From NCBI GenBank assembly GCA_003138485.1, contig PLGF01000173.1, positions 31,281 through 95,280 on the forward strand: 64,000 nucleotides of DNA. Direction: 5' to 3'. The stretch is from Verrucomicrobiales bacterium. GTDB lineage: Bacteria; Verrucomicrobiota; Verrucomicrobiia; Limisphaerales; Palsa-1400. The notes beneath the pieces are model-generated. The model searched no databases, was not told the DNA's origin, and saw nothing but the letters and a program-made list of their open reading frames with translations. The translations under genes were made by a program, and so were the position numbers. Shown here in pieces: positions 9,400-36,369 of this stretch (position 1 is its first letter; each line of letters opens with the position of its first letter).

Positions 9400-12300
9400 A
9401 TGAAAACAATCCTCCCTTCATTCGTCAAACCGGCCCTCCAATTGACCCTCCTCCAACTGGGCCTGCTCTTTTGCCCCGCCCTGCGCGCCGGCGTCGCCTT
9501 CACCGTCACGCCTGCCGCCGTGAGCAACACTTACAGCGGCTTCATCACCCTTCAGGTGACCGGCCTGAGCGCCGGCGATACCGTGGTGGTGCAGAAATAC
9601 CTGGACGTCAATGGCAGCGGCGTCATCGCCTCGAATGACTGGCTGGTGCAACAGTTTCAACTCACCGATGGCCAGCCGGGCATGGTGATCGGCGGCATCG
9701 TCAATTCCAACGTGCCGGGCGACACCGACACGACGCCGGGACAAATCACCACGCCGATGAATTTTCAGAACGGCGATTTCATGCAGAACATTGCCGGGCA
9801 ATATCTCTTCAAGCTGTCCAGCCCGGCCGGGCATTTTACGGCGAAAACGAATCTTTTCAGCATCACCAACGTCCCGTTCGCGCAGAAGCTCACCGGCAAT
9901 GTGCTCATCAGCGGAACCAGTACGCCGGTCCCCAATGCCATTGTCCTCCTTGAAAGAGAAAACGGCCCGGCCCAGGGAGGCGTGCTGGCGGACAATTCCG
10001 GCTCTTACACCATCCCGGCGCCGCCCGGGACTTATACGCTGCTCCCTTTCAAGAGCAACTATGTCTTCAATCAAAGTTCATCGGCTCTGCCGGTCCTTGC
10101 CTTGAGCAGCGGCCAGACCATCACCACGAACCTGACGGTCACCGCCGCCACGGCCAGCATCTCCGGTCAACTGGTCGATTCCAACAATCTCTCCATTGGA
10201 TTGCCGGGCGTTTTTTTGGGGGCCACAGCGTCCAACAGCCTCACGGGGATAGGTTTGACGGACAGCAACGGCAATTTTACCGTCGGCGTCGTCTCCAACC
10301 TCGGCAACTGGTCGTTCAAACTCAAAGGCGAGCGTCTTATTGTCCACGGCTATGTTGGATTGAATGAGAAAGTGAGCGCCGCCGCCGGGCAAACCGATGT
10401 CACCCTCGCCGTGCCCAAGGGCACGGCGATGTTTTATGGCAGTGTGAAAGACAATCTGGGAAGTCCCATGCCCGGCATCGAAGTCGAGTCCTCCGACAAA
10501 AATAACAATTATCAGGGCGACGGCTACACCGACGCAAATGGGAATTACGCCGCCGTCGCGCTGGGCGGCCTGGGCAACGACTCGTGGCAGGTGGGACTCA
10601 GCAGTGACACGAGCCCCGCCGGTTACCTTTTTTCGCAGCCGCTCGTTGACTCGAACGGCGGCACGAACATGAGCACCGGACAGGCGCTGCCGGCGAATTT
10701 CACCGCCCTTCTGGCGACCAATTCCATCTCCGGCTCCCTCAAGGACAATAACGGCAACCCCATCCCCGGCATCGGCGTTTACGGCAACGACCTCAGCGAC
10801 ACCAATTATCAGGCCTACGTCGATACCGACACCAATGGCAATTATTCGTTGAGCGTGGGCAATGGCACTTGGAAGGTCGGCATCAACTCCTGCAACGGTT
10901 GCGGGGGCGACAGTTTGCCCGGCAACTATCTGCCCCCCCCAAATCAAACGTTTACGATTTCCAACGACAACGCGACGGCCGATTTCATCGCGCAACTCTG
11001 CGGCACGATCATCATCACCACCACTTCACTGCCCGCCGGCGAAATTAATGAGTATTACGATCAGTTTGGCCAGGCTTCCAGTTGCAGTTCCACCTTCACC
11101 TGGTCGATCATCTCCGGTTCACTGCCGCCGGGTTTGAGCGGGAACCCTTTCACCGGCGAAATCTCCGGCACACCCACCAATTCCGGAGTTTACCCTTTCA
11201 TCATCCAGGTCGTTGACGGCAACGGCCTGGCAGCCATTCAAGCACTGACCCTGACCGTCAACGGCGGCCCGTTGAGTGTGACGACGGCTTCACTCACCAG
11301 CGGCACAACCAACGTGCCCTATAACAGCCAGCAGTTGACCGCCAGCGGCGGCCAGCCGCCTTACCGTTGGTCCCTGGCATCGGGGGGGCTGCCGTCCGGC
11401 TTGGGCTTGTCCACCAACGGCGTGATTAGCGGGACGCCGACAAGGGCTGGGACTACCAACTTCGTCGTGAAAGTCACCGACAGCGCCTCGGCAACAGCGA
11501 CGCAGCCCCTGTCGCTGGCCGTCTATGCGCTTTCCACTTCCGTGACGTTTTCTGTTTCGACTGGCGCCGTCAGCAACTCTTATTCCGGGCTTATTACGCT
11601 GCAAGTGGCGGGGTTGAACATCGGTGAGACCGTGCAGGTGGAGAAGTTTCTCGACGTCAATGGGGACGGCGCGGTGGATGCCGGGGATTCGCTGATGCGG
11701 AGTTTCCCCCTGACCGACGGCCAGGCCAGTGTGATCGGCGGGGTCACCAACGTCAACGTCCCCGGTGATACCACTCCGGCCGATGGCTCCATCACCGCTC
11801 AGCTCAGCATCGCCAACGACGTGGCTCAGGAGATCGTCGGCCAGTACATCTTCAGGCTCACCAGCCCAACCGGCCGCTTTGCGCCGATGACGGCCCTGTT
11901 TGATGTGACCAATGCCGCCTACGCGCAATCGTTTTCCGGGTCGGTTCAATGCGGCGGCGTCAACGTCCCTTACGCGACCGTGTTGGTCGTCCCTGCCAAT
12001 AGCACGAGCCGCACCCCCGTGGCCGGCGTGCTGGCGAACAGCGCCGGCAACTACTCCATCAAACTGCCGCCCGGCCCTTACAGTTTCTACGTCTTCAAGA
12101 GCAACTATGTCGCCAACCTGGCCCAGTCGCCGACGCTCACGTTGAGCAATGGGGCGGACGTCACCACGAATCTCACTTTCCTGGTTCCCGCCACCCAAAC
12201 CATCTCCGGTCGATTTGTCGATGCAGCCTACCCCGGCGTCGGATTGCCGGCCATATACGTCATCTGCCAATCCACCAATAGCCTCATGGCCGGAGCCTGT

Positions 12301-14121
12301 TTGACCGACACCAACGGGAACTTCACCATGCCGGTCACCCCAAGTCAGTGGGGAGTCTCCCTGGACGAATCAGGTCTGACAGCCAGCGGCTACCTTGTTC
12401 CACAGAGCAGCACGACCGTTCAAACGGCCTCCGGGAGCGTCTCCAATGTTATTGTCACAGTGGCCAAGGGCACGGCGCTGTTCTATGGAAGCGTCAAGGA
12501 TAGCTTCGGAAATCCATTGCCGTCAATTGAGGTTGAATCCCGGGACAACAACAACTTGTATGGAGGCGATGCCTATACGGACACGAACGGAAACTACGTC
12601 GTCGTCGCCCTGGGCGGATTGAGCTTCGACCCGTGGCAGGTTGAAATCAGCAGCGACCACAGTCCCGCCGACTACCTTTATCAGGGGCCGGGCTTTGATT
12701 CAAACGGCGGCGCCAACCTCGGCTCCGGCCAGGCATTGCCGGGGGATTTCTCGGCCCTTCTGGCGACCAACACCATCTCCGGCTATCTAAAGGACAACAC
12801 CGGCAAACCCATCGCCGGCGTCGGAGTTTACGCCTACGCAACGATCTCCGAAGTGTACTACCAACTGGAAGCCGTGGATACCGGCGCCAATGGGTATTAT
12901 TCGCTGGACGTAGCCAGCGGCTCGTGGTCGGTCGGCCTCATTGGGAGCGGCTACAACGATAGTCTGCCCACAAACTATCTCAGCCCTCAATATCAGACAG
13001 TTGTAATTTCCAGCGACAATGGCACGGCGAATTTCACCGCCCCTGTTGCGACCCAGTTGATCACTGGCTTCGTGCAGGACAGCCACGGAAACCCCGTCAC
13101 CGGAGTCGGGGTGTACGCCAACGACGTTAGCGACACCAATTATGGCGCTTATGCGGACACCGACGGCAACGGCAACTACTCGCTGAACGTGATTGCCGGC
13201 AGTTGGTCCGTTGGCGTCAACTGCTCCGGCGGCAACGACAGCCTGGACAACATTCTTGGCAGGGGCAATTATGAGTGTCCAACCAACGAGAATGTCACTA
13301 TTACCAATGAAACCGGCACCGCGAATTTCACCGTTGAGCCTCCCGTGCCGCTGCAAATAACGACTACCAATCTGCCCGCTGGCAGCGTCGGCATCTTCTA
13401 CGAGTTTCAACTCCAAGCCACTGGCGGGCACCCTCCGTACCAGTGGGGTTGGACCACACCGGATGGCAACCCTCCGCCCGGCTTGAATTTGACCTTTTCC
13501 AATGGGGTTCTATCCGGCTATCCCAGCGCCAGTGGGACCTTTGTATTCTCGGTGCAGGCCTACGATAATTATACCTCTCAGGATTCGACGAATCAATGGA
13601 TATCGGTTTACATCGCGCCATCCGCTCCCCCGTTGCAGGTCACGACCACGTCTTTGCCCAATGCGACCAATGGCGTTTATTACAGCCAGCAACTACAGTG
13701 CTCTGGCGGTGTCGCGCCCTATTATTGGACCAACAGTCCCGGCTCGGCCAGTCTGCCGCCCAATTTGACTCTGGCCACCAATGGCATCATCTCCGGCACG
13801 CCGACGGGCAGCGGAACGTATTACTTCTACGTCCGCGCCATAGATTCGACGGCGGCGACGGCGGATCACCTTCTGTCGCTCACAATCACCAACAAGCCGG
13901 TCATCACCCTCACGGGAGCGACCCGGCTGACCAATGGGGAGTTTCAGTTCAAATTCAACACCTCTGCGGGCGCCACTTATGCGATTCAATCCTCCAGCAA
14001 CTTGTTGAATTGGAGCCTGCTCCTGGACCTCAGCGGCTCCGGCGTGCCGCTGACGGTGATGGACCCCGGCGCCACGACCAACCGCCGCCAGTTTTATCGC
14101 GTGGAGGTCCTGCCACCCTAG
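9400..14121 (+). CDS. giant secreted cell-surface repeat protein (He_PIG / putative Ig domains, CarboxypepD_reg-like beta-sandwich repeats) with the conserved RFYRV-type C-terminal domain
   Basis: The 1573-aa ORF has an N-terminal signal peptide. It is an internal duplication of a ~700-aa super-module (the FTVTPAAVSNTYSGFITLQVTGL block recurs near aa 710). Repeated TTTSLPxGxxGxxYxxQLxAxGGxxPYxWS Ig-like units are present. The C-terminal 75 aa match the CTD shared with three other proteins in the window. Confidence 0.8.
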   Translation: MKTILPSFVKPALQLTLLQLGLLFCPALRAGVAFTVTPAAVSNTYSGFITLQVTGLSAGDTVVVQKYLDVNGSGVIASNDWLVQQFQLTDGQPGMVIGGIVNSNVPGDTDTTPGQITTPMNFQNGDFMQNIAGQYLFKLSSPAGHFTAKTNLFSITNVPFAQKLTGNVLISGTSTPVPNAIVLLERENGPAQGGVLADNSGSYTIPAPPGTYTLLPFKSNYVFNQSSSALPVLALSSGQTITTNLTVTAATASISGQLVDSNNLSIGLPGVFLGATASNSLTGIGLTDSNGNFTVGVVSNLGNWSFKLKGERLIVHGYVGLNEKVSAAAGQTDVTLAVPKGTAMFYGSVKDNLGSPMPGIEVESSDKNNNYQGDGYTDANGNYAAVALGGLGNDSWQVGLSSDTSPAGYLFSQPLVDSNGGTNMSTGQALPANFTALLATNSISGSLKDNNGNPIPGIGVYGNDLSDTNYQAYVDTDTNGNYSLSVGNGTWKVGINSCNGCGGDSLPGNYLPPPNQTFTISNDNATADFIAQLCGTIIITTTSLPAGEINEYYDQFGQASSCSSTFTWSIISGSLPPGLSGNPFTGEISGTPTNSGVYPFIIQVVDGNGLAAIQALTLTVNGGPLSVTTASLTSGTTNVPYNSQQLTASGGQPPYRWSLASGGLPSGLGLSTNGVISGTPTRAGTTNFVVKVTDSASATATQPLSLAVYALSTSVTFSVSTGAVSNSYSGLITLQVAGLNIGETVQVEKFLDVNGDGAVDAGDSLMRSFPLTDGQASVIGGVTNVNVPGDTTPADGSITAQLSIANDVAQEIVGQYIFRLTSPTGRFAPMTALFDVTNAAYAQSFSGSVQCGGVNVPYATVLVVPANSTSRTPVAGVLANSAGNYSIKLPPGPYSFYVFKSNYVANLAQSPTLTLSNGADVTTNLTFLVPATQTISGRFVDAAYPGVGLPAIYVICQSTNSLMAGACLTDTNGNFTMPVTPSQWGVSLDESGLTASGYLVPQSSTTVQTASGSVSNVIVTVAKGTALFYGSVKDSFGNPLPSIEVESRDNNNLYGGDAYTDTNGNYVVVALGGLSFDPWQVEISSDHSPADYLYQGPGFDSNGGANLGSGQALPGDFSALLATNTISGYLKDNTGKPIAGVGVYAYATISEVYYQLEAVDTGANGYYSLDVASGSWSVGLIGSGYNDSLPTNYLSPQYQTVVISSDNGTANFTAPVATQLITGFVQDSHGNPVTGVGVYANDVSDTNYGAYADTDGNGNYSLNVIAGSWSVGVNCSGGNDSLDNILGRGNYECPTNENVTITNETGTANFTVEPPVPLQITTTNLPAGSVGIFYEFQLQATGGHPPYQWGWTTPDGNPPPGLNLTFSNGVLSGYPSASGTFVFSVQAYDNYTSQDSTNQWISVYIAPSAPPLQVTTTSLPNATNGVYYSQQLQCSGGVAPYYWTNSPGSASLPPNLTLATNGIISGTPTGSGTYYFYVRAIDSTAATADHLLSLTITNKPVITLTGATRLTNGEFQFKFNTSAGATYAIQSSSNLLNWSLLLDLSGSGVPLTVMDPGATTNRRQFYRVEVLPP

Positions 14122-14161
14122 AACCTCCAAATGGGTTGGAACAAGAAAGGCTCGTCAACCG

Positions 14162-15316
14162 ATGAAAATGCGCATCTGGCGGTTGTTCGGCAAGCCGGCC
14201 TCGGCCTCCCTTCGTGCAGGTTCTGCACGATGTTACCTGGCAGCCGGGTTGCTTATGCTGACAGGGTTGACGGCTTGGAATGCGCAGTCCCAGCCGATTG
14301 ATGTTACCACCAGCCAATACACCGGAGATTTATGGTTGGAGTTTGTCAGCCCCCGCAGTGAGATTTGGTCAAATCAGGTTCCGTCCTCTCCGCCCTTCGC
14401 CAGCACGATTGAGGAGACATCAACTTGGGCCAGGTCCGACTACCCTGGCGTGAATTGCACCACTTATGGGCTTGTAAGCCAAGATTGCCAGATCTCTTCC
14501 GACAGCATTACGATCTCATGCTCTTATTACGATTCAGCGGGAGGGCCGGAGGAACCCTGGATAGGGTGGATGGCAGCCCAGGTGTGGCCGTCGTCTGGCG
14601 CCACGTTAACTTTCTCCTTGACTGAACCTTGCGCTTACACGGCGTCGGTTCAGATGTCTGCCGCCTGCCCTGGCGGCACCACAGCCGATACGGGCGCGCT
14701 GTTCCAATACTCTGCAAGCTCAACGTTTGGAAGCTACATGGAAGCTACTTCACATTTTCCTTCGTTATCGGCCACGATGACAACCAACGGATACCTTGCC
14801 ACCGGCGGTTATATAATTTCTTGTGACTGTAACGGCGATAACGCGATTCTTCTTGGACTTGGTGAAATGACGGCGAGGGCAAGCGCCATTGTATCGGTTT
14901 CTTTCGTTCCCCTCCCGGCCCTTGCCATCACCACTCCCAGCCCACTGCCGAACGGGACAGTGAGCGTGCCCTACAATCAAACTCTTGCCGCAACAGGAGG
15001 GGCGCCGCCGTACGCGTGGTCCATCGTTTCAGGCAGTTTGCCCGACGGGTTGAGCTTGGACGCGAACAGCGGCGCCATCACCCGCACGCCCACGAGTGCG
15101 ACGACAGCCACCTTCACAGTGCAGGTGACGGACAGGATCGGGACGACCGCAACCCAGCAGTTCACCCTGTCCGTCGTCGCACCGCTTGTCATTACCACGG
15201 CTAATCCGTTGCCGGACGGAACAGTGGGTGTGTCCTATGGCGTGACGCTGGAGGCGACCGGGGCTCAGGCAATTACACATGGGACATCGTCTCGGGCAGT
15301 TTGCCAGATGGGTTAG
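14162..15316 (+). CDS. secreted He_PIG (putative Ig) repeat surface protein, 5' portion of a gene interrupted by a frameshift
   Basis: Signal peptide, then Ig-like repeats (PLPNGTVSVPYNQTLAATGGAPPYAWSIVSGSLPDGLSLD). The reading frame runs into the downstream ORF after a 1-nt change in the G4 run at 15260-15263. Confidence 0.65.
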   Translation: MKMRIWRLFGKPASASLRAGSARCYLAAGLLMLTGLTAWNAQSQPIDVTTSQYTGDLWLEFVSPRSEIWSNQVPSSPPFASTIEETSTWARSDYPGVNCTTYGLVSQDCQISSDSITISCSYYDSAGGPEEPWIGWMAAQVWPSSGATLTFSLTEPCAYTASVQMSAACPGGTTADTGALFQYSASSTFGSYMEATSHFPSLSATMTTNGYLATGGYIISCDCNGDNAILLGLGEMTARASAIVSVSFVPLPALAITTPSPLPNGTVSVPYNQTLAATGGAPPYAWSIVSGSLPDGLSLDANSGAITRTPTSATTATFTVQVTDRIGTTATQQFTLSVVAPLVITTANPLPDGTVGVSYGVTLEATGAQAITHGTSSRAVCQMG

Positions 15317-16953
15317 GGTTCGACACCCGCAGCGGCGCCATCGGTGGCATGCCGACCGCCGCCACAACCAATAGCATTGAGGTGGAGGTGAGAGACGACA
15401 ACGGAGTTACAACGAACAAAACCTTCACCCTAACGATCACGAATTCATTCGTCACCATTGTCACCCCCAGTCCGTTGCCGGACGGAACCGTGGGCGTGGG
15501 TTACAGCCATCCATTGGAAGCCACGGGCGGCACAGGCAATTACGCGTGGACGATTGCAGGATTGCCGGACGGTTTGCTCCCGGATTCCAGCGGAGACATT
15601 ACCGGCATTCCAACCACGGCTGGGATTTTCAACTTTGTCGCCCAAGTAACCGACATGGTGACGGGCGCCTCCGCCAGCAATTTGTTCAGCCTGACCATCA
15701 GTAACGTGCTCGGCACCTGCACTTGGACGATCACAACCTCGGTCAAACCGTCCGGCTCCGGCAACGGAGGCAGCCCCCTTGTCCTGGCCGTGAACTGCGG
15801 AGAGAGCGTGACGGTGACGGCGCGGCCAAGAACCTGTTACTATTTCGTCAACTGGACGGAAGGCGGGAGCGTCGTCAGCGCCTCGTCAAGTTACTCCTTC
15901 ACCGCGACGGCGAATCGGAACCTGGTGGCCAATTTCACGGAAAACCTCTACACAATCAGCACGAGCCATTCACCCGCCTCTGGCGGCGCCACCGGCGGCG
16001 GCGGAACAAATGCAGGGTGCGGGAGCAGAGTGATGGTGACCGCCACGGCCAACAGCGGCTTTGCGTTTGCCAACTGGACTGAGGGTGGGCTGGTGGTAAG
16101 CGCCGCGTCAAACTACACGTTCACTGTCTCGGCCAATCGGACCTTGGTGGCCAATTTCAACGATATTCAGCCGCCCTCCCTCGTCATAACCTCACCGCTG
16201 CCAGTCCAGATGTGGGGTTCGCTGGGCACGGCGAACTTGGCCGCCGCCGGGACGGCGACTGACAACGTTGCCGTGGCGTCGGTGTGGTATCAGTTCAACG
16301 GCGGGGCTTGGACGGAGGCCAACGGCACAACCAATTGGACCACGGGCAACCTGAACCCGGCTTCCGGCACCAATCTCCTCTTGGCGTGCGCGGTGGACAC
16401 CAGCGGCAACGGGTCGGCGACCAACAGCGTGGCTTTCGTCTATGTGTGGGTCGCGCCGTTACAGGCGCCACCCACCGTTTTGCCCAGCGCGACGCAGAAC
16501 GTTTCTTACAGCACCCCACTCCAAGGAATCGGAGGGCAACCGCCATACACCTGGTCGCTGGCGCTTGGGTCGGCCGCCTTGCCGCCCGGTTTGTCTTTTG
16601 CGACCAATGGCATCCTATCGGGCTTTCCAAGCACGGCCGGCACAAGCTCCTTCATCGTGAGCGTGACCGATGCGGCGGATACGACCACAAACCAAGTGAT
16701 GACACTCACGGTCAATGCTTCGACCAACCCGCCCGTCGTGGTGTTGACCGCTGCATCGTGTTCCAGCAGTGGGCAGGTCCAATTCAGCTTCAATACAACG
16801 GTGGGCTTGAACTACACCGTTCAACGCTCGACGGACCTGGAAACCTGGACTTCCCTCCTGACGTTGAGCGGTTCCGGCGGGCCTCAGACCGTCATGGATT
16901 CCAACGCCGCCGGAGCAAGCCATCGCTTTTATCGCGTGCAAATCGGGCAGTAG
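15301..16953 (+). CDS. 3' portion of the same surface protein (He_PIG repeats, two InlB-B/Listeria-Bacteroides-type repeats, conserved C-terminal RFYRV domain)
   Basis: The repeat unit continues seamlessly from the upstream ORF if one G is added (expected ...EATGGSGNYTWDIVSGSLPDGLGFD). CYYFVNWTEGGSVVSASSSYSFTATANRNLVANF occurs twice. The C-terminus is ...QFSFNTTVGLNYTVQRSTDLETWTSLLTLSGSG...HRFYRVQIGQ. Confidence 0.65.
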   Translation: MPDGLGFDTRSGAIGGMPTAATTNSIEVEVRDDNGVTTNKTFTLTITNSFVTIVTPSPLPDGTVGVGYSHPLEATGGTGNYAWTIAGLPDGLLPDSSGDITGIPTTAGIFNFVAQVTDMVTGASASNLFSLTISNVLGTCTWTITTSVKPSGSGNGGSPLVLAVNCGESVTVTARPRTCYYFVNWTEGGSVVSASSSYSFTATANRNLVANFTENLYTISTSHSPASGGATGGGGTNAGCGSRVMVTATANSGFAFANWTEGGLVVSAASNYTFTVSANRTLVANFNDIQPPSLVITSPLPVQMWGSLGTANLAAAGTATDNVAVASVWYQFNGGAWTEANGTTNWTTGNLNPASGTNLLLACAVDTSGNGSATNSVAFVYVWVAPLQAPPTVLPSATQNVSYSTPLQGIGGQPPYTWSLALGSAALPPGLSFATNGILSGFPSTAGTSSFIVSVTDAADTTTNQVMTLTVNASTNPPVVVLTAASCSSSGQVQFSFNTTVGLNYTVQRSTDLETWTSLLTLSGSGGPQTVMDSNAAGASHRFYRVQIGQ

Positions 16954-18050: not shown

Positions 18051-19394
18051 ATGACAATCGATATACCACAAAGAAGCGCGCTTAAAGTGCTCGACACGTT
18101 TGCTGGTGCTGGTGGCTTCAGTTTGGGATTTCAGCTTGCCGGATTTGAAGTTATTGGCGCCATAGAGCGAGATAAATGGGCATGCGAAACGTTCGCATTC
18201 AATCACTCTGGAGCTATCACAGTTAATCGCAATATCGCGGAGATTTCCGATGACGAATTAAAAGAGATGTTTTTCGACAACAATCCAGACATCGTTGTTG
18301 GCGGCCCTCCATGTCAGGGATTTTCAATTGCAAACAAAAGGAATGGCGACCCAAAAGACCCCCGAAATTCCTTATTTAAGGAATTCCTTCGCGTTGGAGC
18401 GGCACTACATCCGGAAATAATGGTGATGGAGAGCGTTCCGAATCTATGCGCGGCCAGGACAGCGTCAAAAGAGAGCGTGTTGGAGATTATCAAGCAGGGC
18501 CTGAGAGAACTTGGATACCACGCATATGCGGCAGTCCTTAACGCAACTTCATTCGGTGTTCCACAAATGCGACAGCGGTTATTTGTTATCGGGTCGCGCA
18601 TGCAGTTGACCACCCTGTTTCCGAGGCCAACTCACCAAGTCTGCCTGAACGGAGACATGTTGCTTTTCGACGATAGCTTACAGCCATGCCCCACACTTTG
18701 GGATGCCATCTCCGATTTGCCACCGCTCGAAGCCGGTGAGGGTTCTGAAGAAACGCCATACTCTTCAGAGCCGAATACTGAATACCAGAAGGCGCTCCGA
18801 TTGGGTTCGACGAGCATTTTTAACCATAAAGCGATGTGTCATACGCGGCGAATCGTCGAGCGCTTCAAAACAATGAAATGGGGGGACTCCGTCAACGATG
18901 TCGCCGAGCACCTAAAACCAAGAAGGCGCAATTCCTCGGAAATCGCCATGGAGGCATACGACCAGAACAATAGGAGGATGCATCCAGAGCGTCAGTGTCA
19001 CACCATTCCCGCTTCCTTTTACGCTAACTTTGTCCATCCGTTTCAGCACAGGAATTTCACTGCTCGAGAAGGCGCGCGAATCCAATCATTCCCCGACTGG
19101 TTTAGGTTCATGGGAAAGCCGACCGTGATCAGCCACAAGCTTCTTGCACGCGAAGAACGACACGAGGAACTGCACCTCTGCCAATACAACCAAATCGGGA
19201 ACGCGGTTCCTCCATTCGTGGGGCGCGCGGTTGCGCTTAATCTCAAGCACCAACTCGAAAGGCTCCAAAATTCAAGATTGATCAAATCTATGTTCTACGA
19301 AAGCAGAAGAATACGGATAGAGAATTCCGTTACGCTGACACATATGAAAAAAATCCCATCTATGCGGATGTGGTGTGGCACTTGTTTGATATGA
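18051..19394 (+). CDS. DNA (cytosine-5)-methyltransferase
   Basis: C5-MTase motifs are present: I (FAGAGGFSLG), IV (GGPPCQGFS), VI (ENV-like MESVPNL), VIII (QMRQRLFVIG) and X (GNAVPP). GC content is markedly lower (~47%) than the flanking DNA. Confidence 0.85.
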   Translation: MTIDIPQRSALKVLDTFAGAGGFSLGFQLAGFEVIGAIERDKWACETFAFNHSGAITVNRNIAEISDDELKEMFFDNNPDIVVGGPPCQGFSIANKRNGDPKDPRNSLFKEFLRVGAALHPEIMVMESVPNLCAARTASKESVLEIIKQGLRELGYHAYAAVLNATSFGVPQMRQRLFVIGSRMQLTTLFPRPTHQVCLNGDMLLFDDSLQPCPTLWDAISDLPPLEAGEGSEETPYSSEPNTEYQKALRLGSTSIFNHKAMCHTRRIVERFKTMKWGDSVNDVAEHLKPRRRNSSEIAMEAYDQNNRRMHPERQCHTIPASFYANFVHPFQHRNFTAREGARIQSFPDWFRFMGKPTVISHKLLAREERHEELHLCQYNQIGNAVPPFVGRAVALNLKHQLERLQNSRLIKSMFYESRRIRIENSVTLTHMKKIPSMRMWCGTCLI

Positions 19395-26924: not shown

Positions 26925-26940
26925 TCCTGTTTCGCTTTTT

Positions 26941-27708
26941 ATGATTGCTCCGACGGCGGTAATTCATCCCAAGGCGCGCCTGGGCGCCGGCTGCGTGATT
27001 GGGCCGTATTGCGTGATCGGGGAAAACGTCACACTCGGCAACGACTGCCGGCTCCATTCGCACGTCGTCATCGACGGCCACACGACCCTGGGCGAGGCCA
27101 ACGAGATTTTTCCCTTCGCCTGCATCGGACTCAAAACGCAGGATTTGAAATGGAAGGGCGGCGTTACCCGCACGCTCATCGGCGGGCACAACACGTTCCG
27201 GGAATACGTCACCATCCACAGCGCCACCGGCGACGGAGAAGTCACGACCGTCGGCTCGCATAACCATATCCTGGCCTATTCCCACATCGCTCACAACGTC
27301 ACCCTGGGCGATCACGTCATCATGTCCAACGTGGCGACCCTGGCCGGGCACATCCTGGTCGAGGACAGGGCCGTTATCGGCGGCCTGGCGGCAGTGCATC
27401 AATTCTGCCGGATAGGAACGATGGCGATCATCGGCGGCTGCTCCAAGGTGGTGCAGGACGTGCCCCCCTACATGATAGCCGACGGCAACCCGGCCCGGAC
27501 GCGCGCCCTCAACAAAGTGGGGTTGGAGCGCAACGGTGTTTCGGCGGAAGCGCAAGCGGCCCTCAAACACGCCCACCGAATCCTCTTTCGCGACGGTCTG
27601 ACCCAGGCCGCCGCCCTGTCAAAAATCGAAAGCGATCTGCCGCCGCTGCCGGAAGTCCGCCGCCTGGTTGAATTCGTCCGCGGCAGCGAGCGCGGCGTTG
27701 CCAAGTGA
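26941..27708 (+). CDS. lpxA: acyl-ACP--UDP-N-acetylglucosamine O-acyltransferase
   Basis: Left-handed beta-helix hexapeptide repeats from the N-terminus (IHPKARLGAGCVIGPYCVIGENVTLG...) and a C-terminal LpxA-type helical domain. Confidence 0.85.
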   Translation: MIAPTAVIHPKARLGAGCVIGPYCVIGENVTLGNDCRLHSHVVIDGHTTLGEANEIFPFACIGLKTQDLKWKGGVTRTLIGGHNTFREYVTIHSATGDGEVTTVGSHNHILAYSHIAHNVTLGDHVIMSNVATLAGHILVEDRAVIGGLAAVHQFCRIGTMAIIGGCSKVVQDVPPYMIADGNPARTRALNKVGLERNGVSAEAQAALKHAHRILFRDGLTQAAALSKIESDLPPLPEVRRLVEFVRGSERGVAK

Positions 27709-29443: not shown

Positions 29444-29687
29444 GGACTCAATCTACCCTTTGCCCATCAAACTTTAAAGAACAAGAAATGCCGCCCTTCC
29501 CATCAAACTTTGCCCGCGCCAAGCCGCCAGTCAGGGGATCGCAGGCCCTCCCGACTTCCCTCATTTCCGGGGCGGGCAGCATTCGCAAGCGGTGCAGCCC
29601 AATAATTTGTTCCGTCTCCTGCGAGCCCCCTATTCCGCATGGACGGCTCGAATTTAACGCCCAGCGCGGAAACCCCGCGGGAATTTA

Positions 29688-29987
29688 GGGTGCACAAGGG
29701 TGCACAAGCCTGCATAAGCGCAGGGATCTCCGCGCCGCCGGGCGGGAAAGTGCTCCGCTGGATTTGCCGGACGCTCATTCGCAACGCCAGAACCGCGCGC
29801 CTGCTGCTCTTCTCCCAGCCTGTCCGCCATGGCCTTGCCGATGGCGGGGGGGGTAGTATGAGTGTGATCTCCGAAGAATCCTGTCCTGCGCCCGGGGCGG
29901 CCGGCACCGAAAGGCTCGCTTGCATCGCAACAAAACTACCGTAATTTTTTAACCACGGATGCACACGGATGGACACGGATTCAAATC
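29688..29987. repeat. composite dispersed intergenic repeat, copy 2 (same modules and order as 7733-8026)
   Basis: gggtgcacaagggtgcacaagcctgcataagc ... actaccgtaatttttt aaccacggatgcacacggatggacacggattcaaatc. Both copies are followed within ~200 bp by a tttcaaagaacaa box. Confidence 0.6.
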
Positions 29988-30267
29988 CCCCAATGCCCGC
30001 CAGGCGGGAAAAAATGGCTTTCAGCGCACAGCGGGCGCAACGGTTCACGCCACGCAGGCCGCCCGATGCGGGACGGGCCGCGCCGACAGCATTTCAAAGA
30101 ACAAGCCTGCTTATGAAATGTAACATACCAGGGAGGGATTGCAAGAGCATTTTTGCCCGCAGAACATTTGCGGGCGTGAGACAGAGTTCTTCAGGCGGTT
30201 TGTCTCCGCAGGGAAGACCATGAGAGTCGTATATCCATTCAGATCCAAACGCCGGGCGCGCGGGGGA

Positions 30268-30367
30268 AAGCGGCGCTGGCGCGCGCGCACTCCAAGGCCT
30301 GGCGGCTTTTCGCAAGCTTCCTGTGTGCGCGAAGCGTCTTGGAGTGCGGGCGCGCCAGCGCCGCTTT
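30268..30367. repeat. long imperfect inverted repeat (~30-bp arms, ~40-nt loop) 60-160 bp downstream of the stop of the 30425-34378 gene; terminator-like or REP-like
   Basis: aaagcggcgctggcgcgcgcgcactccaagg ... cttggagtgcgggcgcgccagcgccgcttt, with 29 of 31 positions complementary. Confidence 0.55.
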
Positions 30368-30424
30368 GTTCCTCAATCAGCGACGATTACCAGAACCTGC
30401 GGAGTTGCGCCGGAAAACCGGGCT

Positions 30425-33400
30425 TCAGGGTGAACTGACCCGGTAAAACCGATTGGAATCATTTGTGGTTTGCGGTTCGGCAAATTGAAATTGGCCGGGA
30501 GCTGTTTCAAGGGCCTGCCCGATCACCGTCCAGCCGCTGGCAGGCAGCAATAGATTGGTGAAGCTCAACACACTAAAAGTCGCGCCGGAGATGTTGGTGA
30601 AGGCGAATTGGAATTCGCCGGTGGCGGACTGGGGCAAGGTGATGAGAGCCGGCGGCGTGGCGACGGGCTGAAACTCGAACGCGCCGATGTCCACATGCCC
30701 CCCTGCCTGACGGGGGAAGCCGCGTTGGTCGGTCGTGAGATTGTACGGCGGGCTGAACAACGCGGCGTCGCCAGCTTCCAAGGCCGGGCTGCCATGAAGG
30801 AGAGCCATGGTGGGGGTGCGACCGCCGTTGCCGGCGAGCGGGCCGAGCAGCGGGGCAAGCGGGTTGGCCGTGGTGCCCGCCAAGTCAGCGTTGACGCCGT
30901 TGGTGAAGCCAGTACTGCCGTTGGTCTGTCCGATCAAGTTATATCCCAGTGAGGTGAACGAGCCGGCGAGGTCCGGGCCGGCGCCGGCAGAACCTCCATT
31001 GCCGGCGGCTCCGGCATAGTTCAGCGCAACGAGCGTGTTCACCAGTTGCGCTGAAGAACCGACAAACACCGGGTAGGTCGAGGGAGACAAGTCGGAGATG
31101 GCGCCACTCCCGCCATTGCCCGGTGCGCCGCCGTAACTGCCGACGCCGACATCACCCCCATTGCCGCCAAAATTGCCGCTGACGGTGCAACCGGCCAGCG
31201 TGAGGGTGCCCGCGCTGCAAACACCGCCGGGACCACCATTCCCCCCGTTGCCGTTAGCACCTCCTGTTCCATTACCATCACATCTGTTAGTGCCGCCAGA
31301 GCCGCCGCTGCCGCCGATATTGCCGCTGAGTGTGCAGGAGATCAGCGTCAACTGGCCTGCGTTGTAAATGCCTCCCGTGCCTCCAAAGCCGCCCAATTCG
31401 TAGTCCTCGCACGGGTCAGCCATCCCGCCGCTGCCACCCATGTTGTCCGCGATTGCACAGTCGGTAATGGTGGACGTGCCTCCATTGAAAACACCACCGG
31501 TGCCGCCCGCGCCAGTTAATCCAGTCCAACTCTGGAAACCTCCGCCGCCAGGGCCGCCGAGATTGGCCTGGAGCATGCAATCGAGCATGAAGAGATTGCT
31601 CGCGGCATAGATGGCGCCAACCCCACCAACACCAGGCGTAATGCTGGAGTCGTACTCGGAGGAAACGCCCGTGCCGCCCTGATTGCCAGTGAACGTGCAA
31701 CCAACCAGCGTCAACGGCCCGGTGCTATAAAAACCACCTCCATCGCCGCCGGGGGATGCGCTTACCAAGCCAGGAGAACCGCCTTGATTACCGATAAAGG
31801 CGCAGTTGGTGGCGCTGGCCGCGAGGGGGCTTGCGCTACAGACTGCGCCGCCATTGCCTCCATGGCCACTTCCATTACTGGCGTAGTAGAGGTCCGCGCC
31901 GCCGCCGCCGCCAGCGGTGTTTCCGCTCAAAGTGGTGGAGGAGATGCTGAGAGCGCCCGCGCTGTAGATGGCGCCGCCGCTGCCCCCCATCCCACCTGAG
32001 CTATGACTGCCATTACCACCATGGCCTCCGATACCTGCTGAATTGCTGGCGAATGCACAAGCATCCACCGTGAGGGTGCCGGCGTTGTAGATGCCGCCGC
32101 CATTCCCCCCATCCCCGCCATTCCCCCCAATCCTGCCCGGCCCCGGTGTCGCGCCGTTGCCGTCCGTGTTGCTGACGAGAGTGCAGGACGTAAGTGTCAG
32201 CGCGCCCGCGTTGTAGATGCCGCCGCCATCACCACCCGGCCCGCCAGAAATGCCGTCAGGCGCGCGCCCATTGCAAATCGTCAGGCCGGAGATGCTGACG
32301 GTCGCGTTGGAGGCGATCTCGAAGACGCGGCCAATGGTATTACCGCTAATGGCGAGGTTCGTTGCGCCAGGGCCGATGATCGTGAGATCATTTGTGAGGA
32401 GCAATTCCCCGCTGGTGAGGGTAATGGCGCCCAGGAACGAGAAATTGATGGTTGCGCCGGGGGCCGCGGCCTGGATGGCTTGGCGTAGCGAACCGTCGCC
32501 CGCATCGTTGTTGTTCCAAACCGAAGGATGCACCGCAAACTCCTCGTCGGTCCCGTACACAAAGCCCGGAACCGTCCAAGCCACCAGGCGATAGTGATAG
32601 ATGTTCGTGCTCAACCCACTCAACGTGCTGCTGACCGCCACCACGTTGCCTCCCGCAGGCAGGATGGTCGCGCCGGTGAGATTGCCGTAGTTTGTGTCTC
32701 CGCCCCACTCGAACCAGACGACGGCCTCGCTATCTCCATTGGCGACAGTGCCGTTGAGATTCCCGCTCGTGGTGGAAAGGCTCGTGGCGGGCAACGTCGT
32801 CACAAAGGCGGGCACAACTGTGAGTATGGCGTTACTGCTCAAGACGCTGCCGAAGCTGTCGCTGATGAGCACGGCGTATGTGCCGGAGTTGTTGAGGGTG
32901 AGGTTGGTGAGCACGAGTGAGGCATTGGTGGCGCCAGGCAGGTTCGCGCCATCGCATTCCCATTGATAATTCGACGCCACGAGGCTCAAAACGCTCACCG
33001 TGAACGTCACATTGGTCCCGGTCAGCACGGTCCGGTTGGGCGGTTGCGGCTGGGTCTCGACAAAGACTGGGTCAACCGCAAGCACCGCGTTGCTGCTGAT
33101 CGCGCCGCCATAGCTGTTGATCACCAGCAAGGCGTAACTGCCGGAATTGGACGGCGCGACATTCATCAGGGTCAGCACGGCGTTCGTTGCGCCGGGCAGG
33201 TTGGTGTCATTGAATCGCCACTGATAGGTCAGCGGCGCCACACAGCACACGCCCACACTTAGGGTCACGTTCGTCCCGGCCAGCAAAGTCTGGCTGGCGG
33301 GTTGGCCGGTAATCTGTGGAATCGCAAGGTTCAGCGTGTAAATGCCGCCACCCGCCGCCACCAGTTTTGTCCCGTCGGCTGAACAGGCGACGGCAACCCC

Positions 33401-34378
33401 GTATCCAATGCTCGGAGTCCAGGTGGCTCCCGAGTTCGTCGAGAGGTAAACCGGGGGTGAGAGGTAAACCGGGGGAACAGGGAGCCTGCCGCGGCCTACC
33501 GGCGTACCTTCGGTGATGGCCGTCGCCACCAGTATTGTTCCATCCGCTGAACAGGCGACGGAAGCCCAATAATTATTGGGTGCGCTGCTTCGGGACCAAG
33601 TGCTTCCCGAATTTGTTGATATGACCAAAGGACCTGGGTTCGAGTCGAAACCGTCCTCGCCTTGTGAGTTTATTGGTATCTCACCGATTAGTTGAGCCAC
33701 CGCGACGAGTTTGGTTCCATCGGCAGAGGAGGCGACGGCAGCCCATTCAGCTTCAGCAGACTGAAGGCCGTTCATATCCACTCCATTGGTTGCAGTCCAA
33801 ATGGCGCCCCCATCCTTCGAGGTGAAAATCAGGACGTCTTGAGAAGAGTTACCCAAGGCCACTAATTCCGTTCCATCGGCGGAAGTGGCAATCGAAGTCC
33901 AGCCACGGTAGAGTGGCGCACTGGTCAACGTCCAAGTGCTCCCCGAATCCGTCGAGGTGTAAATGCCGAAGCCGCTCGCGGCCGCCAATTGGGTCCCATC
34001 AGCCGAGGAGACGATGGAAGACCAATTTTGACCGGGCGCGCTGGTTTGGGTCCAAGTGCCGCCCGAATTCGTCGAGGTGTAAATGCCGCCGTCACTCACG
34101 GCCGCCAATTGGGTTCCATCAGCCGAGGAGGCGATGGAGGTCCAGAGGTTGCTCGGCGCGCTGGTTTGGGTCCAAGTGCCGCCCGAATTCGTCGAAGTAT
34201 AAATGCCGCCGTCACTGATTACGGCCGCCAATTTGGCCCCGTCAGCCGAAGAGGCAATGGAAGACCAACTCTCATTGGGCGCGCTGGTCAGCGTCCATGT
34301 TTGGGCCGGCGCGGCATGGGCAAAGGCGAGGAGGATGCAGATCTGTGCCGCACGAAAAAAGCGCGATAATGTTTTCAT
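30425..34378 (-). CDS. giant secreted surface protein with BNR/Ycf48-like propeller repeats, Ig-like domains and a polymorphic-membrane-protein (Pmp)-type parallel beta-helix, ending in the conserved RFYRV C-terminal domain
   Basis: Signal peptide MKTLSRFFRAAQICILLAFAHAAPA. Repeated WT(L/Q)TSAP..W.SIASSADG..LAAV..GGIYTSTNSGGTW units. Then IPQITGQP...Ig-like modules. Then dense GGxIYxAGxLT / GG-rich Pmp-like repeats. C-terminus: ...GEFQFAFTNISGATFSVLSFTNLL...SNRFYRVSSP. Confidence 0.8.
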   Translation of the reverse strand: MKTLSRFFRAAQICILLAFAHAAPAQTWTLTSAPNESWSSIASSADGAKLAAVISDGGIYTSTNSGGTWTQTSAPSNLWTSIASSADGTQLAAVSDGGIYTSTNSGGTWTQTSAPGQNWSSIVSSADGTQLAAASGFGIYTSTDSGSTWTLTSAPLYRGWTSIATSADGTELVALGNSSQDVLIFTSKDGGAIWTATNGVDMNGLQSAEAEWAAVASSADGTKLVAVAQLIGEIPINSQGEDGFDSNPGPLVISTNSGSTWSRSSAPNNYWASVACSADGTILVATAITEGTPVGRGRLPVPPVYLSPPVYLSTNSGATWTPSIGYGVAVACSADGTKLVAAGGGIYTLNLAIPQITGQPASQTLLAGTNVTLSVGVCCVAPLTYQWRFNDTNLPGATNAVLTLMNVAPSNSGSYALLVINSYGGAISSNAVLAVDPVFVETQPQPPNRTVLTGTNVTFTVSVLSLVASNYQWECDGANLPGATNASLVLTNLTLNNSGTYAVLISDSFGSVLSSNAILTVVPAFVTTLPATSLSTTSGNLNGTVANGDSEAVVWFEWGGDTNYGNLTGATILPAGGNVVAVSSTLSGLSTNIYHYRLVAWTVPGFVYGTDEEFAVHPSVWNNNDAGDGSLRQAIQAAAPGATINFSFLGAITLTSGELLLTNDLTIIGPGATNLAISGNTIGRVFEIASNATVSISGLTICNGRAPDGISGGPGGDGGGIYNAGALTLTSCTLVSNTDGNGATPGPGRIGGNGGDGGNGGGIYNAGTLTVDACAFASNSAGIGGHGGNGSHSSGGMGGSGGAIYSAGALSISSTTLSGNTAGGGGGADLYYASNGSGHGGNGGAVCSASPLAASATNCAFIGNQGGSPGLVSASPGGDGGGFYSTGPLTLVGCTFTGNQGGTGVSSEYDSSITPGVGGVGAIYAASNLFMLDCMLQANLGGPGGGGFQSWTGLTGAGGTGGVFNGGTSTITDCAIADNMGGSGGMADPCEDYELGGFGGTGGIYNAGQLTLISCTLSGNIGGSGGSGGTNRCDGNGTGGANGNGGNGGPGGVCSAGTLTLAGCTVSGNFGGNGGDVGVGSYGGAPGNGGSGAISDLSPSTYPVFVGSSAQLVNTLVALNYAGAAGNGGSAGAGPDLAGSFTSLGYNLIGQTNGSTGFTNGVNADLAGTTANPLAPLLGPLAGNGGRTPTMALLHGSPALEAGDAALFSPPYNLTTDQRGFPRQAGGHVDIGAFEFQPVATPPALITLPQSATGEFQFAFTNISGATFSVLSFTNLLLPASGWTVIGQALETAPGQFQFAEPQTTNDSNRFYRVSSP

Positions 34379-34437
34379 AGTTCTTGGTTCGATCATAACA
34401 AGGCGTTTTGAATTGAAGTTCATTTCCAGCGCATTTC

Positions 34438-36369
34438 TCATGGCATTTGCAGGCTGTAGAAGCGGCTGGGGTAATTCGTCCACTGCGGATCGCTGAAATA
34501 GAACGAACCGTTGACAAGCGCGTTGGTGGCGAGCGGAACCCAAACGGGGCTTGCCAAATTAGTGCAGGCAGCCACCACAACCGTGAAATTGGTTGTGCCG
34601 GTGATGTTGAACCCAAAATGGTTGTTCCGCACCCCGAAGTCGCCGTCGCCCACCTGGATCAGCGGGTTCCAGAGCATGAGCGGAAGATACAGACCCGCGT
34701 AGAAATCGCCGGTGGCGCCAGGCAAATAATAGATGGTTGCGGTGTCATCACCGAATGCGACCGAAACACCATAGCTGGCATTGCCCGTGAAATAGACGCT
34801 GGTCAGGTTGGAGCAGGCAGAGAACGCATACTCCTCGATGTCGGTGACGCTGCCGGGAATGGTGACGCTGACCAGTCCGGTGCAGTCATAGAACGCAGCG
34901 TATCCGATGCTGGTGAGGCCGTTGGCGAACGTGGCGTTTGTCAGGCCAGTGCAGGCCACGAACGCATCCTCCCCGAAGTTGGTGAGGCTACCGGGAATGG
35001 TGACGCTCGTTAGATTAGCGCAGCCAAAAAACGCATCCGCACCGATGCTGGCAACGCCATTGGGGATCGTGACGTTGGTCATGCTCCAGCAGTTATCGAA
35101 CGCCGCCGACCCGATGCTGGTGACGCTGTTGGGAATCGTCACGCTTTTCAGACTGACACACGACTGGAAGGCATCCTCCCCGATGTTGGTGACACTGGCG
35201 GGAATCGTGACGATAGCCAGGCTGGAGCAGGAGCCGAACGCATACTGCCCAATGCTCGTCACGCCATCAGCGATCATCGCATTCGTCAGTCCAGAGCATC
35301 CATAAAACGCATACTCCCCGATACTGGTGACGCTGCCGGGTATCGTGATGCCGGGCAGGCTGAGACAGGAATTGAAGGCATTCTGCCCGATGCTGGCGAC
35401 CGAGCCGGGAATGGTGACATTGGTCAGGCTGGCGCAGTCAGCGAACGCAAAATCCCCAATGTTGGTGACACTGCCGGGAATCGTCACGCTGCCCAGGCTG
35501 GGGCAAAGTTCGAACGCCTCGTCTCCGATGCTGGTGACGCTGCCGGGAATGGCGATGCTCGTCATGGAAAAGCAGCCATAGAACGCATCCTGGCCGATGT
35601 TGGTAACGCTGCCGGGAATCGTCACGCCGCTGAGGTAGTAGCAGGTGGAGAACGCGTTATTCCCGATGAGGTTGACGCTGGCGGGAATCGTGTAAGTTCC
35701 ATCCGGGTTGCCCGGTGGATATTGAATGAGCGTGGATTGGCTCTGGTCGAACAATACTCCATCCACATCGCTATAAAAGGAATTATTGGGATCCACCGTG
35801 ATCGCCGCAAGGCTGTTGCACGACTGGAACGCAAAAGCCCCGATGTTGGTGACGCTGCCGGGAATCATGATGCCGGGCAACAGGCCGCAACCGGAGAACG
35901 CGCCTTCGCCGATGCTGGTGACGCCGTCGCCAATGCTGGCGTGAGTCAGGCCGGCGCAGTTCCCGAACCCATACTCCCCAATTTCGGTGACACTGCCGGG
36001 AATCGCGATGCTCGTCAGGCTGGAGCAGGCATTGAAAGCATCCTCCCCAATGTTCACAACGCCGTCGGCGATGTTGGCGTTGGTCAGGCCGGCGCAGCCG
36101 CTAAACGCAAATTCCCCGATGTTGGTGACGCCGCCGGGAATCGTGACGCTGGTCAGGCCGGACTTGTAGTAGAACGCCCCCTCCCCGATGCTGGTGACGA
36201 AGTTGGAAATCACGACCGCACCCCCGGCCCCAGTATATTCGGTGAGGGTGATCGCGCCGTTATTGGTCGCGTAAATGAATTGGGCTTGCACCGCCGCCGG
36301 GGCGGTCAGAAGCAGCAAACCCAAAAGAATGGGCCATGTTGCTTTTCGGCAATGGTTCAGATCAATCAT
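34438..36369 (-). CDS. secreted BspA-type leucine-rich-repeat (LRR_5) surface protein with a divergent RFY-type C-terminal domain
   Basis: Signal peptide, then about 20 tandem copies of IPxSVTxIGxxAFxxCxxLTxVT. C-terminus: ...FGFNITGTTNFTVVVAACTNLASPVW...YPSRFYSLQMP. Confidence 0.8.
   Translation of the reverse strand: MIDLNHCRKATWPILLGLLLLTAPAAVQAQFIYATNNGAITLTEYTGAGGAVVISNFVTSIGEGAFYYKSGLTSVTIPGGVTNIGEFAFSGCAGLTNANIADGVVNIGEDAFNACSSLTSIAIPGSVTEIGEYGFGNCAGLTHASIGDGVTSIGEGAFSGCGLLPGIMIPGSVTNIGAFAFQSCNSLAAITVDPNNSFYSDVDGVLFDQSQSTLIQYPPGNPDGTYTIPASVNLIGNNAFSTCYYLSGVTIPGSVTNIGQDAFYGCFSMTSIAIPGSVTSIGDEAFELCPSLGSVTIPGSVTNIGDFAFADCASLTNVTIPGSVASIGQNAFNSCLSLPGITIPGSVTSIGEYAFYGCSGLTNAMIADGVTSIGQYAFGSCSSLAIVTIPASVTNIGEDAFQSCVSLKSVTIPNSVTSIGSAAFDNCWSMTNVTIPNGVASIGADAFFGCANLTSVTIPGSLTNFGEDAFVACTGLTNATFANGLTSIGYAAFYDCTGLVSVTIPGSVTDIEEYAFSACSNLTSVYFTGNASYGVSVAFGDDTATIYYLPGATGDFYAGLYLPLMLWNPLIQVGDGDFGVRNNHFGFNITGTTNFTVVVAACTNLASPVWVPLATNALVNGSFYFSDPQWTNYPSRFYSLQMP

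Follow-up and report, generated by a model that had tools for sequence, protein, structure and literature searches.

Do the large exported proteins encoded together at one locus of a Verrucomicrobiales genome end in a common domain, and what might such a domain do? Verrucomicrobiota are an abundant phylum of soil, peat and freshwater, and next to nothing is known of the way in which they display their very large adhesin-like and enzyme-like proteins on a diderm surface. The locus lies in a 64-kb window (the whole stretch of DNA that was analysed). A sequence-only reading had proposed that four proteins in it carry a portable C-terminal sorting tag, an interpretation that is partly supported by the analysis described here.

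The four tail-bearing proteins

The four ORFs and their last ~76-80 residues are exactly as that reading quoted them, and a Sec-type signal peptide was recognised by eye at the N-terminus of each protein. Gene 1 (9400..14121, + strand) encodes 1573 aa with a signal peptide (N-terminus MKTILPSFVKPALQLTLLQLGLLFCPALRA, called by eye), six CarboxypepD_reg and four He_PIG domains (ORF and Pfam), and a C-terminal tail of 76 aa (13891..14118, +; aa 1501-1574; family HMM E 5e-25) ending ...RRQFYRVEVLPP. Gene 2 (14162..16953, +; ~930 aa if read through) comprises a signal peptide, He_PIG, Flg_new_2, a further He_PIG and the tail (16723..16950, +; 76 aa, ending ...HRFYRVQIGQ; E 3.3e-25). It is present as two ORFs, 14162-15316 and 15301-16953 (+), split by a one-base frameshift, the second ORF being the 3' part of the longer gene 14162-16953. 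The approximate site is a CCGGGG run at 15258..15262 (+) inside a He_PIG unit, where frame A reads ...GVSYGVTLEATG followed by nonsense and a stop, and frame B carries on with GSGNYTWDIVSGSLPDGLGFDTRSGAIGGMPT; either a sequencing or assembly error or a pseudogene accounts for it.

Gene 3 (30425..34378, - strand; ~1317 aa) has a signal peptide, a BNR/sortilin-like region, Ig_3, a beta-helix region ending in a choice-of-anchor Q domain, and the tail. Its full ORF is 30425-34543 (-; 1372 aa), and translation most probably begins at the ATG at 34378 rather than at 34543. The choice-of-anchor Q domain (NF041518; 30668..30853, -; aa 1231-1292 of the 1372-aa ORF) lies above the curated cut-off, with 76.3 bits against 25, and the tail follows it directly (30428..30664, -; 79 aa, ending ...SNRFYRVSSP; E 1.9e-18). 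Gene 4 (34438..36369, -; 643 aa) encodes a signal peptide, BspA-type LRR_5 repeats (E 5.5e-149) and a tail of the 'LRR-type' subfamily (34441..34680, -; 80 aa, ending ...PSRFYSLQMP; E 5.4e-21). The Ser/Thr kinase-WD40 neighbour that had been pointed out is indeed present (36362..40231, -; 1289 aa); it is directly upstream of genes 4 and 3 and co-directional with them, and the start of gene 4 overlaps its stop by 8 nt. The window also contains LpxC/LpxA genes, which imply a diderm envelope.

The four tails, of ~75-80 aa, are homologous (leave-one-out HMM, E 3e-18 to 2.5e-5), as had been suggested. This includes the divergent LRR tail, which connects to the others via tail 3 (BLASTP, 34% identity, E 5e-8). 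Five positions (F20, L38, W41, F68 and Y69) are invariant in the MAFFT alignment A1. A six-frame scan, in which the 4-tail HMM and the 49-sequence family HMM agree, finds exactly four copies in the window, each single and terminal. Some details of the earlier description need revision: the proteins end 3-5 residues past FYRV/FYSL, not 2-4, and the long G-E/Q-F-Q-F...L-S-G-S-G pattern describes tails 1 and 2 but not tails 3 and 4. The upstream architectures are those described (Pfam), but they are not all unrelated. In proteins 1 and 2 the He_PIG unit directly upstream of the tail is common to both as well; the two are paralogous over ~170 aa and therefore do not represent two independent cases of a tail on unrelated upstream parts.

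A large family without a curated model

When the four tails were compared with Pfam and NCBIfam (hmmscan, E<=10), only chance matches were obtained, which rules out the known sorting domains (T9SS, PEP-CTERM, PPC and others) and agrees with the view that this is no Pfam- or TIGRFAM-type sorting domain. The tail is a previously unmodelled domain, without a model in either library. Literature on the motif, on C-terminal sorting in Verrucomicrobia and on choice-of-anchor domains contained nothing on it.

At E<=1e-3 the family comprises 11,094 clusters (50% identity), of which 768 remain at E<=1e-10; it extends well beyond the shared ancestry of four paralogs. Named relatives are few, and nearly all are Verrucomicrobiota MAGs. 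Matches from word-indexed protein searches were limited to fragments of <=150 aa, nearly always from the LRR-type subfamily and of little use for architecture or taxonomy, and a genome scan with the three-tail alignment A2 yielded just 5 loci because the derived search pattern was narrow. The family consensus is P...L..G.F.F...G..G..Y.vqaStnL..W..l.t....G...F.D..a....RFYR(V/L/A/I)xx(x)P-COOH. Apart from D and R, conservation falls mainly on positions of the hydrophobic core, a pattern equally expected of a purely structural domain.

Predicted fold

The expected beta-sandwich was borne out by an MSA-based AF2 model of tail 4, a compact sandwich of seven strands, the last of them FYSLQ (pLDDT ~93 over the domain). 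A single-sequence AF2 run on tail 1 with its He_PIG unit was useless (pLDDT 47), and the tail 4 model was used instead. By this model the tail is a predicted Ig/Fn3-like beta-sandwich of ~75 residues. A fold search with it returned generic sandwiches only, so the structure offers no functional hint. At the sequence level, the best match of the 49-sequence profile among PDB chains (hmmsearch) had E 0.058 and covered a local motif only. Kinship with discoidin (F5/8 type C) or DUF3999 domains was rejected; the matches are partial and summed, cover ~25-45 residues around S-x-D-L-x-x-W, come from multi-copy proteins, and are found on none of the window tails.

Cargo domains and neighbouring genes

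Domains found upstream of the tail across the family include fn3, Ig_3, He_PIG, CarboxypepD_reg, Kelch, MBG, Big, DUF11, Cadherin and LRR_5. A signal-peptide-like N-terminus was detected in 51 of 102 Met-initiated hits by a crude script test. Two proteins have a choice-of-anchor Q domain immediately before the tail, namely protein 3 (NF041518 match) and P0132 (read from sequence). NCBIfam uses the choice-of-anchor name for domains located ahead of C-terminal anchors of different kinds; by this naming the tail stands where an anchor normally follows.

A candidate sortase or translocon had been envisaged; none was found: nothing is conserved beside the tail genes in 80 loci, where, besides LRR genes and apparent shadow ORFs, no family occurs in more than 10 loci. 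The second-largest neighbour cluster looks like antisense shadow ORFs of LRR genes, which is an assumption, and the third-ranked (12 ORFs in 10 loci) is likewise assumed to be spurious.

Position, copy number and the terminal proline

A copy ends within 8 aa of the C-terminus in 141/150 best hits with the A2 HMM and in 144/150 with the A5 HMM. Tandem arrays of 2-6 copies are present in 105 of these 150 proteins, in a ranking that favours multi-copy proteins; the other 45 are single-copy and, by reading of the hit table rather than a script tally, terminal in all except P0150. In 80 metagenome loci, 108/108 tail-bearing ORFs have the tail at the terminus and 107/108 have a single copy; these ORFs include general-type tails met by chance in flanks, but because most are close LRR-type relatives they are not independent observations. 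Nine further copies in nine other related loci (two short-ORF contexts, one of them on two contigs, and five genome loci) all lie at the C-terminal end; the stop comes 3-5 residues past the motif in eight, and the ninth runs off its locus. The claim of a C-terminal location thus holds almost always, with the exception of internal copies in tandem arrays and of a few proteins with other domains after the copy (P0150, with its single internal copy, and also P0137, P0191 and P0244). Since it occurs internally in arrays and occasionally as a single internal copy, a finding that the sequence-only reading had named as counting against its proposal and that applies in part, the tail behaves as a repeatable folded domain; portability on different signal-peptide architectures stands, and the notion of a pure tag is weakened.

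Most terminal copies finish on a Pro that lies 3-5 residues beyond FYRx: 56/91 do so in the set at 50% identity, and 106/108 among the metagenome ORFs. Among internal copies, the first Pro past FYRx falls at +3 or +4 in only 33/170. The contrast is between unlike quantities, the last residue of terminal copies and the first Pro past the motif in internal ones. This Pro is the one clear difference between the classes, and a distinct 'terminal type' of domain is only weakly supported by nearest-neighbour analysis. In 32 of 100 multi-copy proteins the terminal copy has its nearest relative among the internal copies of that protein, and between proteins the terminal-terminal identity (0.238) is barely above the terminal-internal identity (0.218).

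These similarities, together with the tandem repeats, the core-like conserved positions and the generic fold, would fit an ordinary structural Ig-like spacer or repeat with no targeting role, brought to the terminus by 3'-end domain accretion and duplication during a lineage-specific expansion of surface proteins. A neutral spacer, however, is expected at many positions, yet all 108 metagenome ORFs and ~95% of the best hits have a copy at the extreme C-terminus, as do all nine copies in the other loci, on unrelated architectures, and neither the terminal-specific Pro nor the choice-of-anchor Q context is explained by it. We regard this alternative as unlikely, though by no means negligible.

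The strict terminal position in the unbiased samples (the nine copies and the 108 ORFs), the specific C-terminal Pro, the upstream choice-of-anchor Q domain and the very large cargo repertoire would also suit an export signal. Here a dedicated outer-membrane translocon would recognise the sandwich, and a sortase-like peptidase would cleave it, possibly with covalent attachment of the protein to a surface glycolipid. The T9SS CTD follows this logic: it too is a small beta-sandwich, placed C-terminally on cargo that is exported by Sec and has little else in common (PMC4804311). However, many of the best hits carry 2-6 near-identical copies in tandem, whereas a sorting signal normally occurs once per protein; the tail is matched by no sorting HMM, those for T9SS type A/B and PEP-CTERM included; no candidate machinery lies beside the tail genes in the 80 loci; and the T9SS has been described as restricted to the FCB superphylum (PMC12398890), while the relatives that have names belong to Verrucomicrobiota. 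An export signal of this kind is accordingly rather doubtful.

A proposed role at the cell surface

We tentatively favour, with a confidence a little short of an even balance, a C-terminal surface-targeting or retention module. That a very large family sits almost always at the end of exported proteins of Verrucomicrobiota-type bacteria makes a surface-targeting or anchoring role credible, if unproven. The N-terminal Sec signal peptide, judged by eye, would direct the protein across the inner membrane. The folded C-terminal sandwich is the one element common to otherwise unrelated cargo, and the chain stops 3-5 residues beyond its last strand, RFYRV, usually at Pro. A shared envelope partner may bind the sandwich and so keep the protein attached by its C-terminal end to the cell surface, from which the adhesin, enzyme or repeat part would project outward. 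We infer such a partner and surface localisation, and the tail could be either kept or removed. Tandem copies, which fit a binding module better than a one-shot signal, might add avidity or reach, like the repeated wall-binding modules of other bacteria.

That the tail is instead a CBM-like carbohydrate- or ligand-binding module for an external substrate, and not for the cell's own envelope, is very unlikely: tandem copies are typical of CBMs, weak Foldseek neighbours are found among small CBMs (5fu3, 5aos and 6a6c; E 0.3-0.5) and the local S-x-D/N-L-x-x-W motif gives sub-threshold partial matches to F5/8 type C models, but all these similarities are below significance, the discoidin matches span 25-45 residues of 91- to 424-position profiles, CBMs are not confined to the extreme C-terminus, and many cargo proteins are LRR or Ig adhesin-like, not glycoside hydrolases.

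A bolder speculation, which we consider improbable but worth stating, is that the RFYR-Pro sandwich might be the cargo signal of an undiscovered Verrucomicrobiota outer-membrane secretion or attachment pathway, a T9SS CTD analogue that is evolutionarily unrelated to it, with more than ten thousand cargo families and with multi-copy small proteins acting as scaffolds or competitors.

A family of more than 11,000 clusters with a near-absolute C-terminal rule and no curated model merits a new Pfam or NCBIfam entry as a gain for annotation. The domain offers a marker for the exported surface proteome of Verrucomicrobiota and a concrete way in to whatever pathway or envelope ligand deals with these proteins. 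Even with a purely structural role it would be a large domain family that lacks annotation.

Comparison with known systems

PEP-CTERM/exosortase substrates likewise carry their signal at the C-terminus of signal-peptide proteins, and choice-of-anchor domains often precede PEP-CTERM and other short sorting signals in NCBIfam usage. As already remarked in the sequence-only reading, however, the four tails have no PEP motif and no transmembrane helix with a basic tail; there is no NCBIfam match, TIGR02595 included, and the tail is a predicted folded 75-aa domain ending in Pro. As to Fn3 and generic Ig-like domains, Pfam fn3 (PF00041) does not match the tails at E<=10, and the fn3 matches in relatives sit in separate N-terminal domains. 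The tail chain, moreover, ends right after the RFYRV strand, and Fn3 domains have neither the terminal Pro nor so strong a rule of C-terminal position.

SLH, LysM, GW, choline-binding repeats and PPC are terminal modules that occur in one or several tandem copies on many unrelated exported proteins, which they tether or help to export. The tail resembles them in being terminal, single or tandem, and common to many unrelated exported proteins, but it has no sequence relationship to them, and a diderm envelope is implied here.

From the T9SS CTD the tail differs in several respects. The tails do not match TIGR04183 (type A), TIGR04131 (type B) or Pfam PF18962 (Por_Secre_tail) even at E<=10, and the T9SS CTD is absent among the structural neighbours listed for the tail. 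The tail family forms tandem arrays, and its named relatives belong to Verrucomicrobiota, not to the FCB group. No PorU/PorV-type machinery was found beside the tail genes, and we know of none for this domain. What the two have in common is a beta-sandwich of ~70-80 aa, predicted in the case of the tail, that closes surface or secreted proteins of unrelated architecture exported by Sec, many of them in each genome. In the T9SS the last residues of the chain matter; terminal copies of the tail carry a specific C-terminal Pro.

The tail and its genes in the window

Four ORFs of the window end in homologous tails of ~76–80 residues, with sequences as quoted in the sequence-only reading. When all 64 kb were scanned in six frames with an HMM of the four tails, exactly these four copies were found, each single and terminal, in agreement with a 49-sequence family HMM. 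The chains stop 3–5 residues past the FYRx motif, a slightly longer end than the 2–4 residues first read. Sec-type signal peptides, judged by eye, are present on all four proteins, and because the remaining large proteins are cytoplasmic or membrane enzymes, every large exported repeat protein of the window has the tail, as had been proposed.

The upstream parts had been described as unrelated, which does not hold for proteins 1 and 2 (9400–14121 and 14162–16953, plus strand); they have an adjacent He_PIG unit in common and therefore are not independent examples. What had been read as protein 2 is only the 3′ part of gene 14162–16953. One of the He_PIG units of this plus-strand gene is split by a one-base frameshift within a run of CCGGGG (approximately 15258–15262), so that the signal-peptide half and the tail half of the gene are separate ORFs; the frameshift is either an assembly error or the mark of a pseudogene. 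Gene 3 (30425–34378, minus strand) most likely starts with the ATG at 34378, the protein beginning MKTLSRFFRAAQICILLAFAHA..., about 60 nt beyond the stop of gene 4 (34438–36369, minus strand).

A large family without a curated model

Isolated tails gave no match at E<=10 in Pfam-A and NCBIfam; the possibility of a known Pfam/TIGRFAM sorting domain, which the sequence-only reading had left to be checked, thus finds no curated model that covers the tail. In the four full-length proteins the final annotated domain stops just ahead of it. In protein 3 the tail is directly preceded by choice-of-anchor Q (NF041518, 76 bits, aa 1231–1292), a name that in NCBIfam denotes domains ahead of varied C-terminal anchors. 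Weak Pfam matches to F5/8 type C, F5_F8_type_C_2 and DUF3999 in multi-copy proteins were rejected, as they comprise only a 25–45-residue stretch around S-x-D/N-L-x-x-W.

An exhaustive HMMER search with tails 1–3 over 1.84 billion cluster representatives retrieved 11,094 proteins at E<=1e-3, of which 768 reach E<=1e-10. Named relatives come from MAGs of Limisphaerales, Verrucomicrobiae, Verrucomicrobiia and Verrucomicrobiota, and one further contig from a MAG labelled Candidatus Acidoferrum (Acidobacteriota). The latter contig (L005) has an adjacent gene pair, 223–3222 and 3226–6213, both ending in the tail, which could be mis-binning or a real occurrence beyond Verrucomicrobiota. Metagenome loci with the LRR-type tail, the subfamily of tail 4, are taken to be mostly from peat or bog, going by their sample prefixes. 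No mention of the motif or of a Verrucomicrobial C-terminal sorting domain was found in the literature searched.

The domains upstream of the tail are highly varied and include fn3, Ig_3/I-set, He_PIG, CarboxypepD_reg, Kelch, MBG, Big_7/9/2, DUF11, Cadherin_5, LRR_5 and beta-helix. Small proteins of 300–450 aa also recur (P0125, P0139, P0152, P0157, P0158, P0160, P0169, P0192, P0194, P0203 and others), in which a signal peptide and one Fn3-like domain (VTLAWDPSPDPNVAGYR.YYG) are followed by 2–3 tandem tails, and neither a catalytic nor an adhesive part is evident. Many ORFs of 60–140 aa consist of the LRR-type tail alone and lie on long contigs just 3′ of LRR_5 fragments (4794–6261 in locus L002; 5078–6240 in L003/L004). 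Genes for BspA-type LRR proteins with the tail therefore often look broken in assemblies, through either repeat-induced errors or pseudogene formation.

Position, copy number and structure

Among the best 150 of the 11,094 representatives, a copy ends within 8 residues of the C-terminus in 141 by the three-tail HMM (A2) and in 144 by a second family HMM (A5). Tandem copies, 2–6 each, occur in 105 of these 150, a sample biased toward multi-copy proteins by its summed-score ranking; P0123 has four near-identical copies behind DUF11 domains, and P0124 has five. Single-copy matches, read from the match table, are terminal in 44 of 45 cases, the exception being P0150. The expectation of an always C-terminal domain holds as a near-universal terminal copy, but internal copies occur in tandem arrays and, with something else behind them, in P0150, P0137, P0191 and P0244.

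A less biased sample is given by 80 metagenome loci, picked via the LRR-type motif and scanned in all frames. All 108 tail ORFs, including about ten general-type tails merely present in the flanks, stop within 8 residues past the domain end, and 107 have a single copy. Nine other related loci were scanned (two short-ORF contexts, one of them on two contigs, and five genome loci); all nine copies are C-terminal, with the stop 3–5 residues past the motif in eight, while the ninth runs off its locus. P0001, a metagenome fragment of 132 aa, has one and a half tandem LRR-type copies, so duplication can occur even in this subfamily, whose copies are otherwise single.

Terminal copies stop 3–5 residues past FYRx. 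Their last residue is Pro in 56 (62%) and Gln in 14 of the 91 copies of a 50%-identity set, and Pro in 106/108 (98%) of the metagenome set, which is mostly LRR-type. Internal copies have no fixed Pro at that offset, the first Pro being at +3 or +4 in just 33/170. In the window, Pro is the last residue of tails 1, 3 and 4 (codons at 14116–14118, 30428–30430 and 34441–34443). Elsewhere, Pro is disfavoured as the residue next to a bacterial stop codon. Apart from this residue, terminal and internal copies show no sharp distinction.

The AF2 model of tail 4, from a 120-sequence alignment, is confident (pLDDT about 93 over residues 21–100) and predicts a compact seven-strand sandwich, in which FYSLQ, corresponding to the RFYRV motif, forms the final strand two residues before the chain end. 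Foldseek gave no match for this model at E<=1e-3, and the best E of the tail profile against PDB sequences was 0.058.

Gene neighborhood

A Ser/Thr kinase-WD40 gene adjoins the tail genes, as first noticed, and is co-directional with the LRR_5 gene (gene 4) and gene 3 (30425–40231, minus strand). Its stop overlaps the start of the LRR_5 gene by 8 nt; given this overlap, the shared direction and the spacing of about 60 nt before gene 3, the arrangement is operon-like. Locus L002 also contains a Pkinase gene, which is separated by about 1.4 kb and another gene from a broken gene encoding LRR_5 and the tail and lies on the opposite strand from it.

The other neighbors in the window are housekeeping genes (nadB-like, LpxC-FabZ, LpxA, histidine kinase). 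Across the 80 metagenome loci, no gene family is found in more than 10 besides the LRR genes and a large second cluster of ORFs, which looks like, and was assumed to be, antisense shadow ORFs of the LRR genes. Accordingly, no candidate sortase or translocon was found among the window neighbors or the 80 loci.

At 25575–27708, LpxC and FabZ are encoded as a fusion, with LpxA next in line, which confirms that the organism is diderm and makes LPS. A C-5 cytosine DNA methylase is encoded at 18051–19394. Lipid/polyketide-type genes follow one another at 41822–62968 and may form a biosynthetic cluster; they encode a ketosynthase (797 aa), an acyltransferase, a class I/II aminotransferase, a Trp-halogenase-like flavoprotein and a 1043-aa fusion of an MMPL transporter with a SAM methyltransferase.

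Possible functions of the tail

It is established that the tail represents a beta-sandwich domain family that is very large and lacks a curated model, shows an almost absolute preference for the very C-terminal end of exported proteins of unrelated architecture, and has a Pro specific to its terminal copies. The portable sorting domain or tag originally proposed is retained as a portable C-terminal domain and not as a linear tag, because tandem arrays and rare internal copies indicate an autonomous, repeatable fold. We tentatively favor a domain for surface targeting or retention, to which a shared putative envelope partner would bind. A purely structural domain is rather unlikely: a repeatable fold would be compatible with it, but the terminal preference and terminal Pro are expected of a module that depends on its terminal position or on a free C-terminal end, and not of a neutral spacer. 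A T9SS-like cleaved export signal would agree with the terminal position and is a little less probable still, since tandem and internal copies suit a binding or retention module, in which repeats add avidity, somewhat better than an export signal used once. That such binding is to an external ligand or carbohydrate is improbable. It is doubtful that the tail points to a pathway of secretion or attachment not yet described.

Comparison with known systems

The sequence-only reading had held that the tail is neither a T9SS CTD nor PEP-CTERM, and membership tests for both fail. Every defining feature of PEP-CTERM is lacking, and Fn3 membership fails by sequence. The T9SS CTD is a C-terminal beta-sandwich export signal (PMC4804311) and the closest functional analogue of the tail; membership fails on the lack of an HMM match, the lack of structural proximity (no T9SS CTD structure is among the fold neighbors listed for the tail 4 model), the tandem copies and the different phylum. 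Conservatively, the tail belongs with the C-terminal beta-sandwich accessory/targeting domains of exported bacterial proteins.
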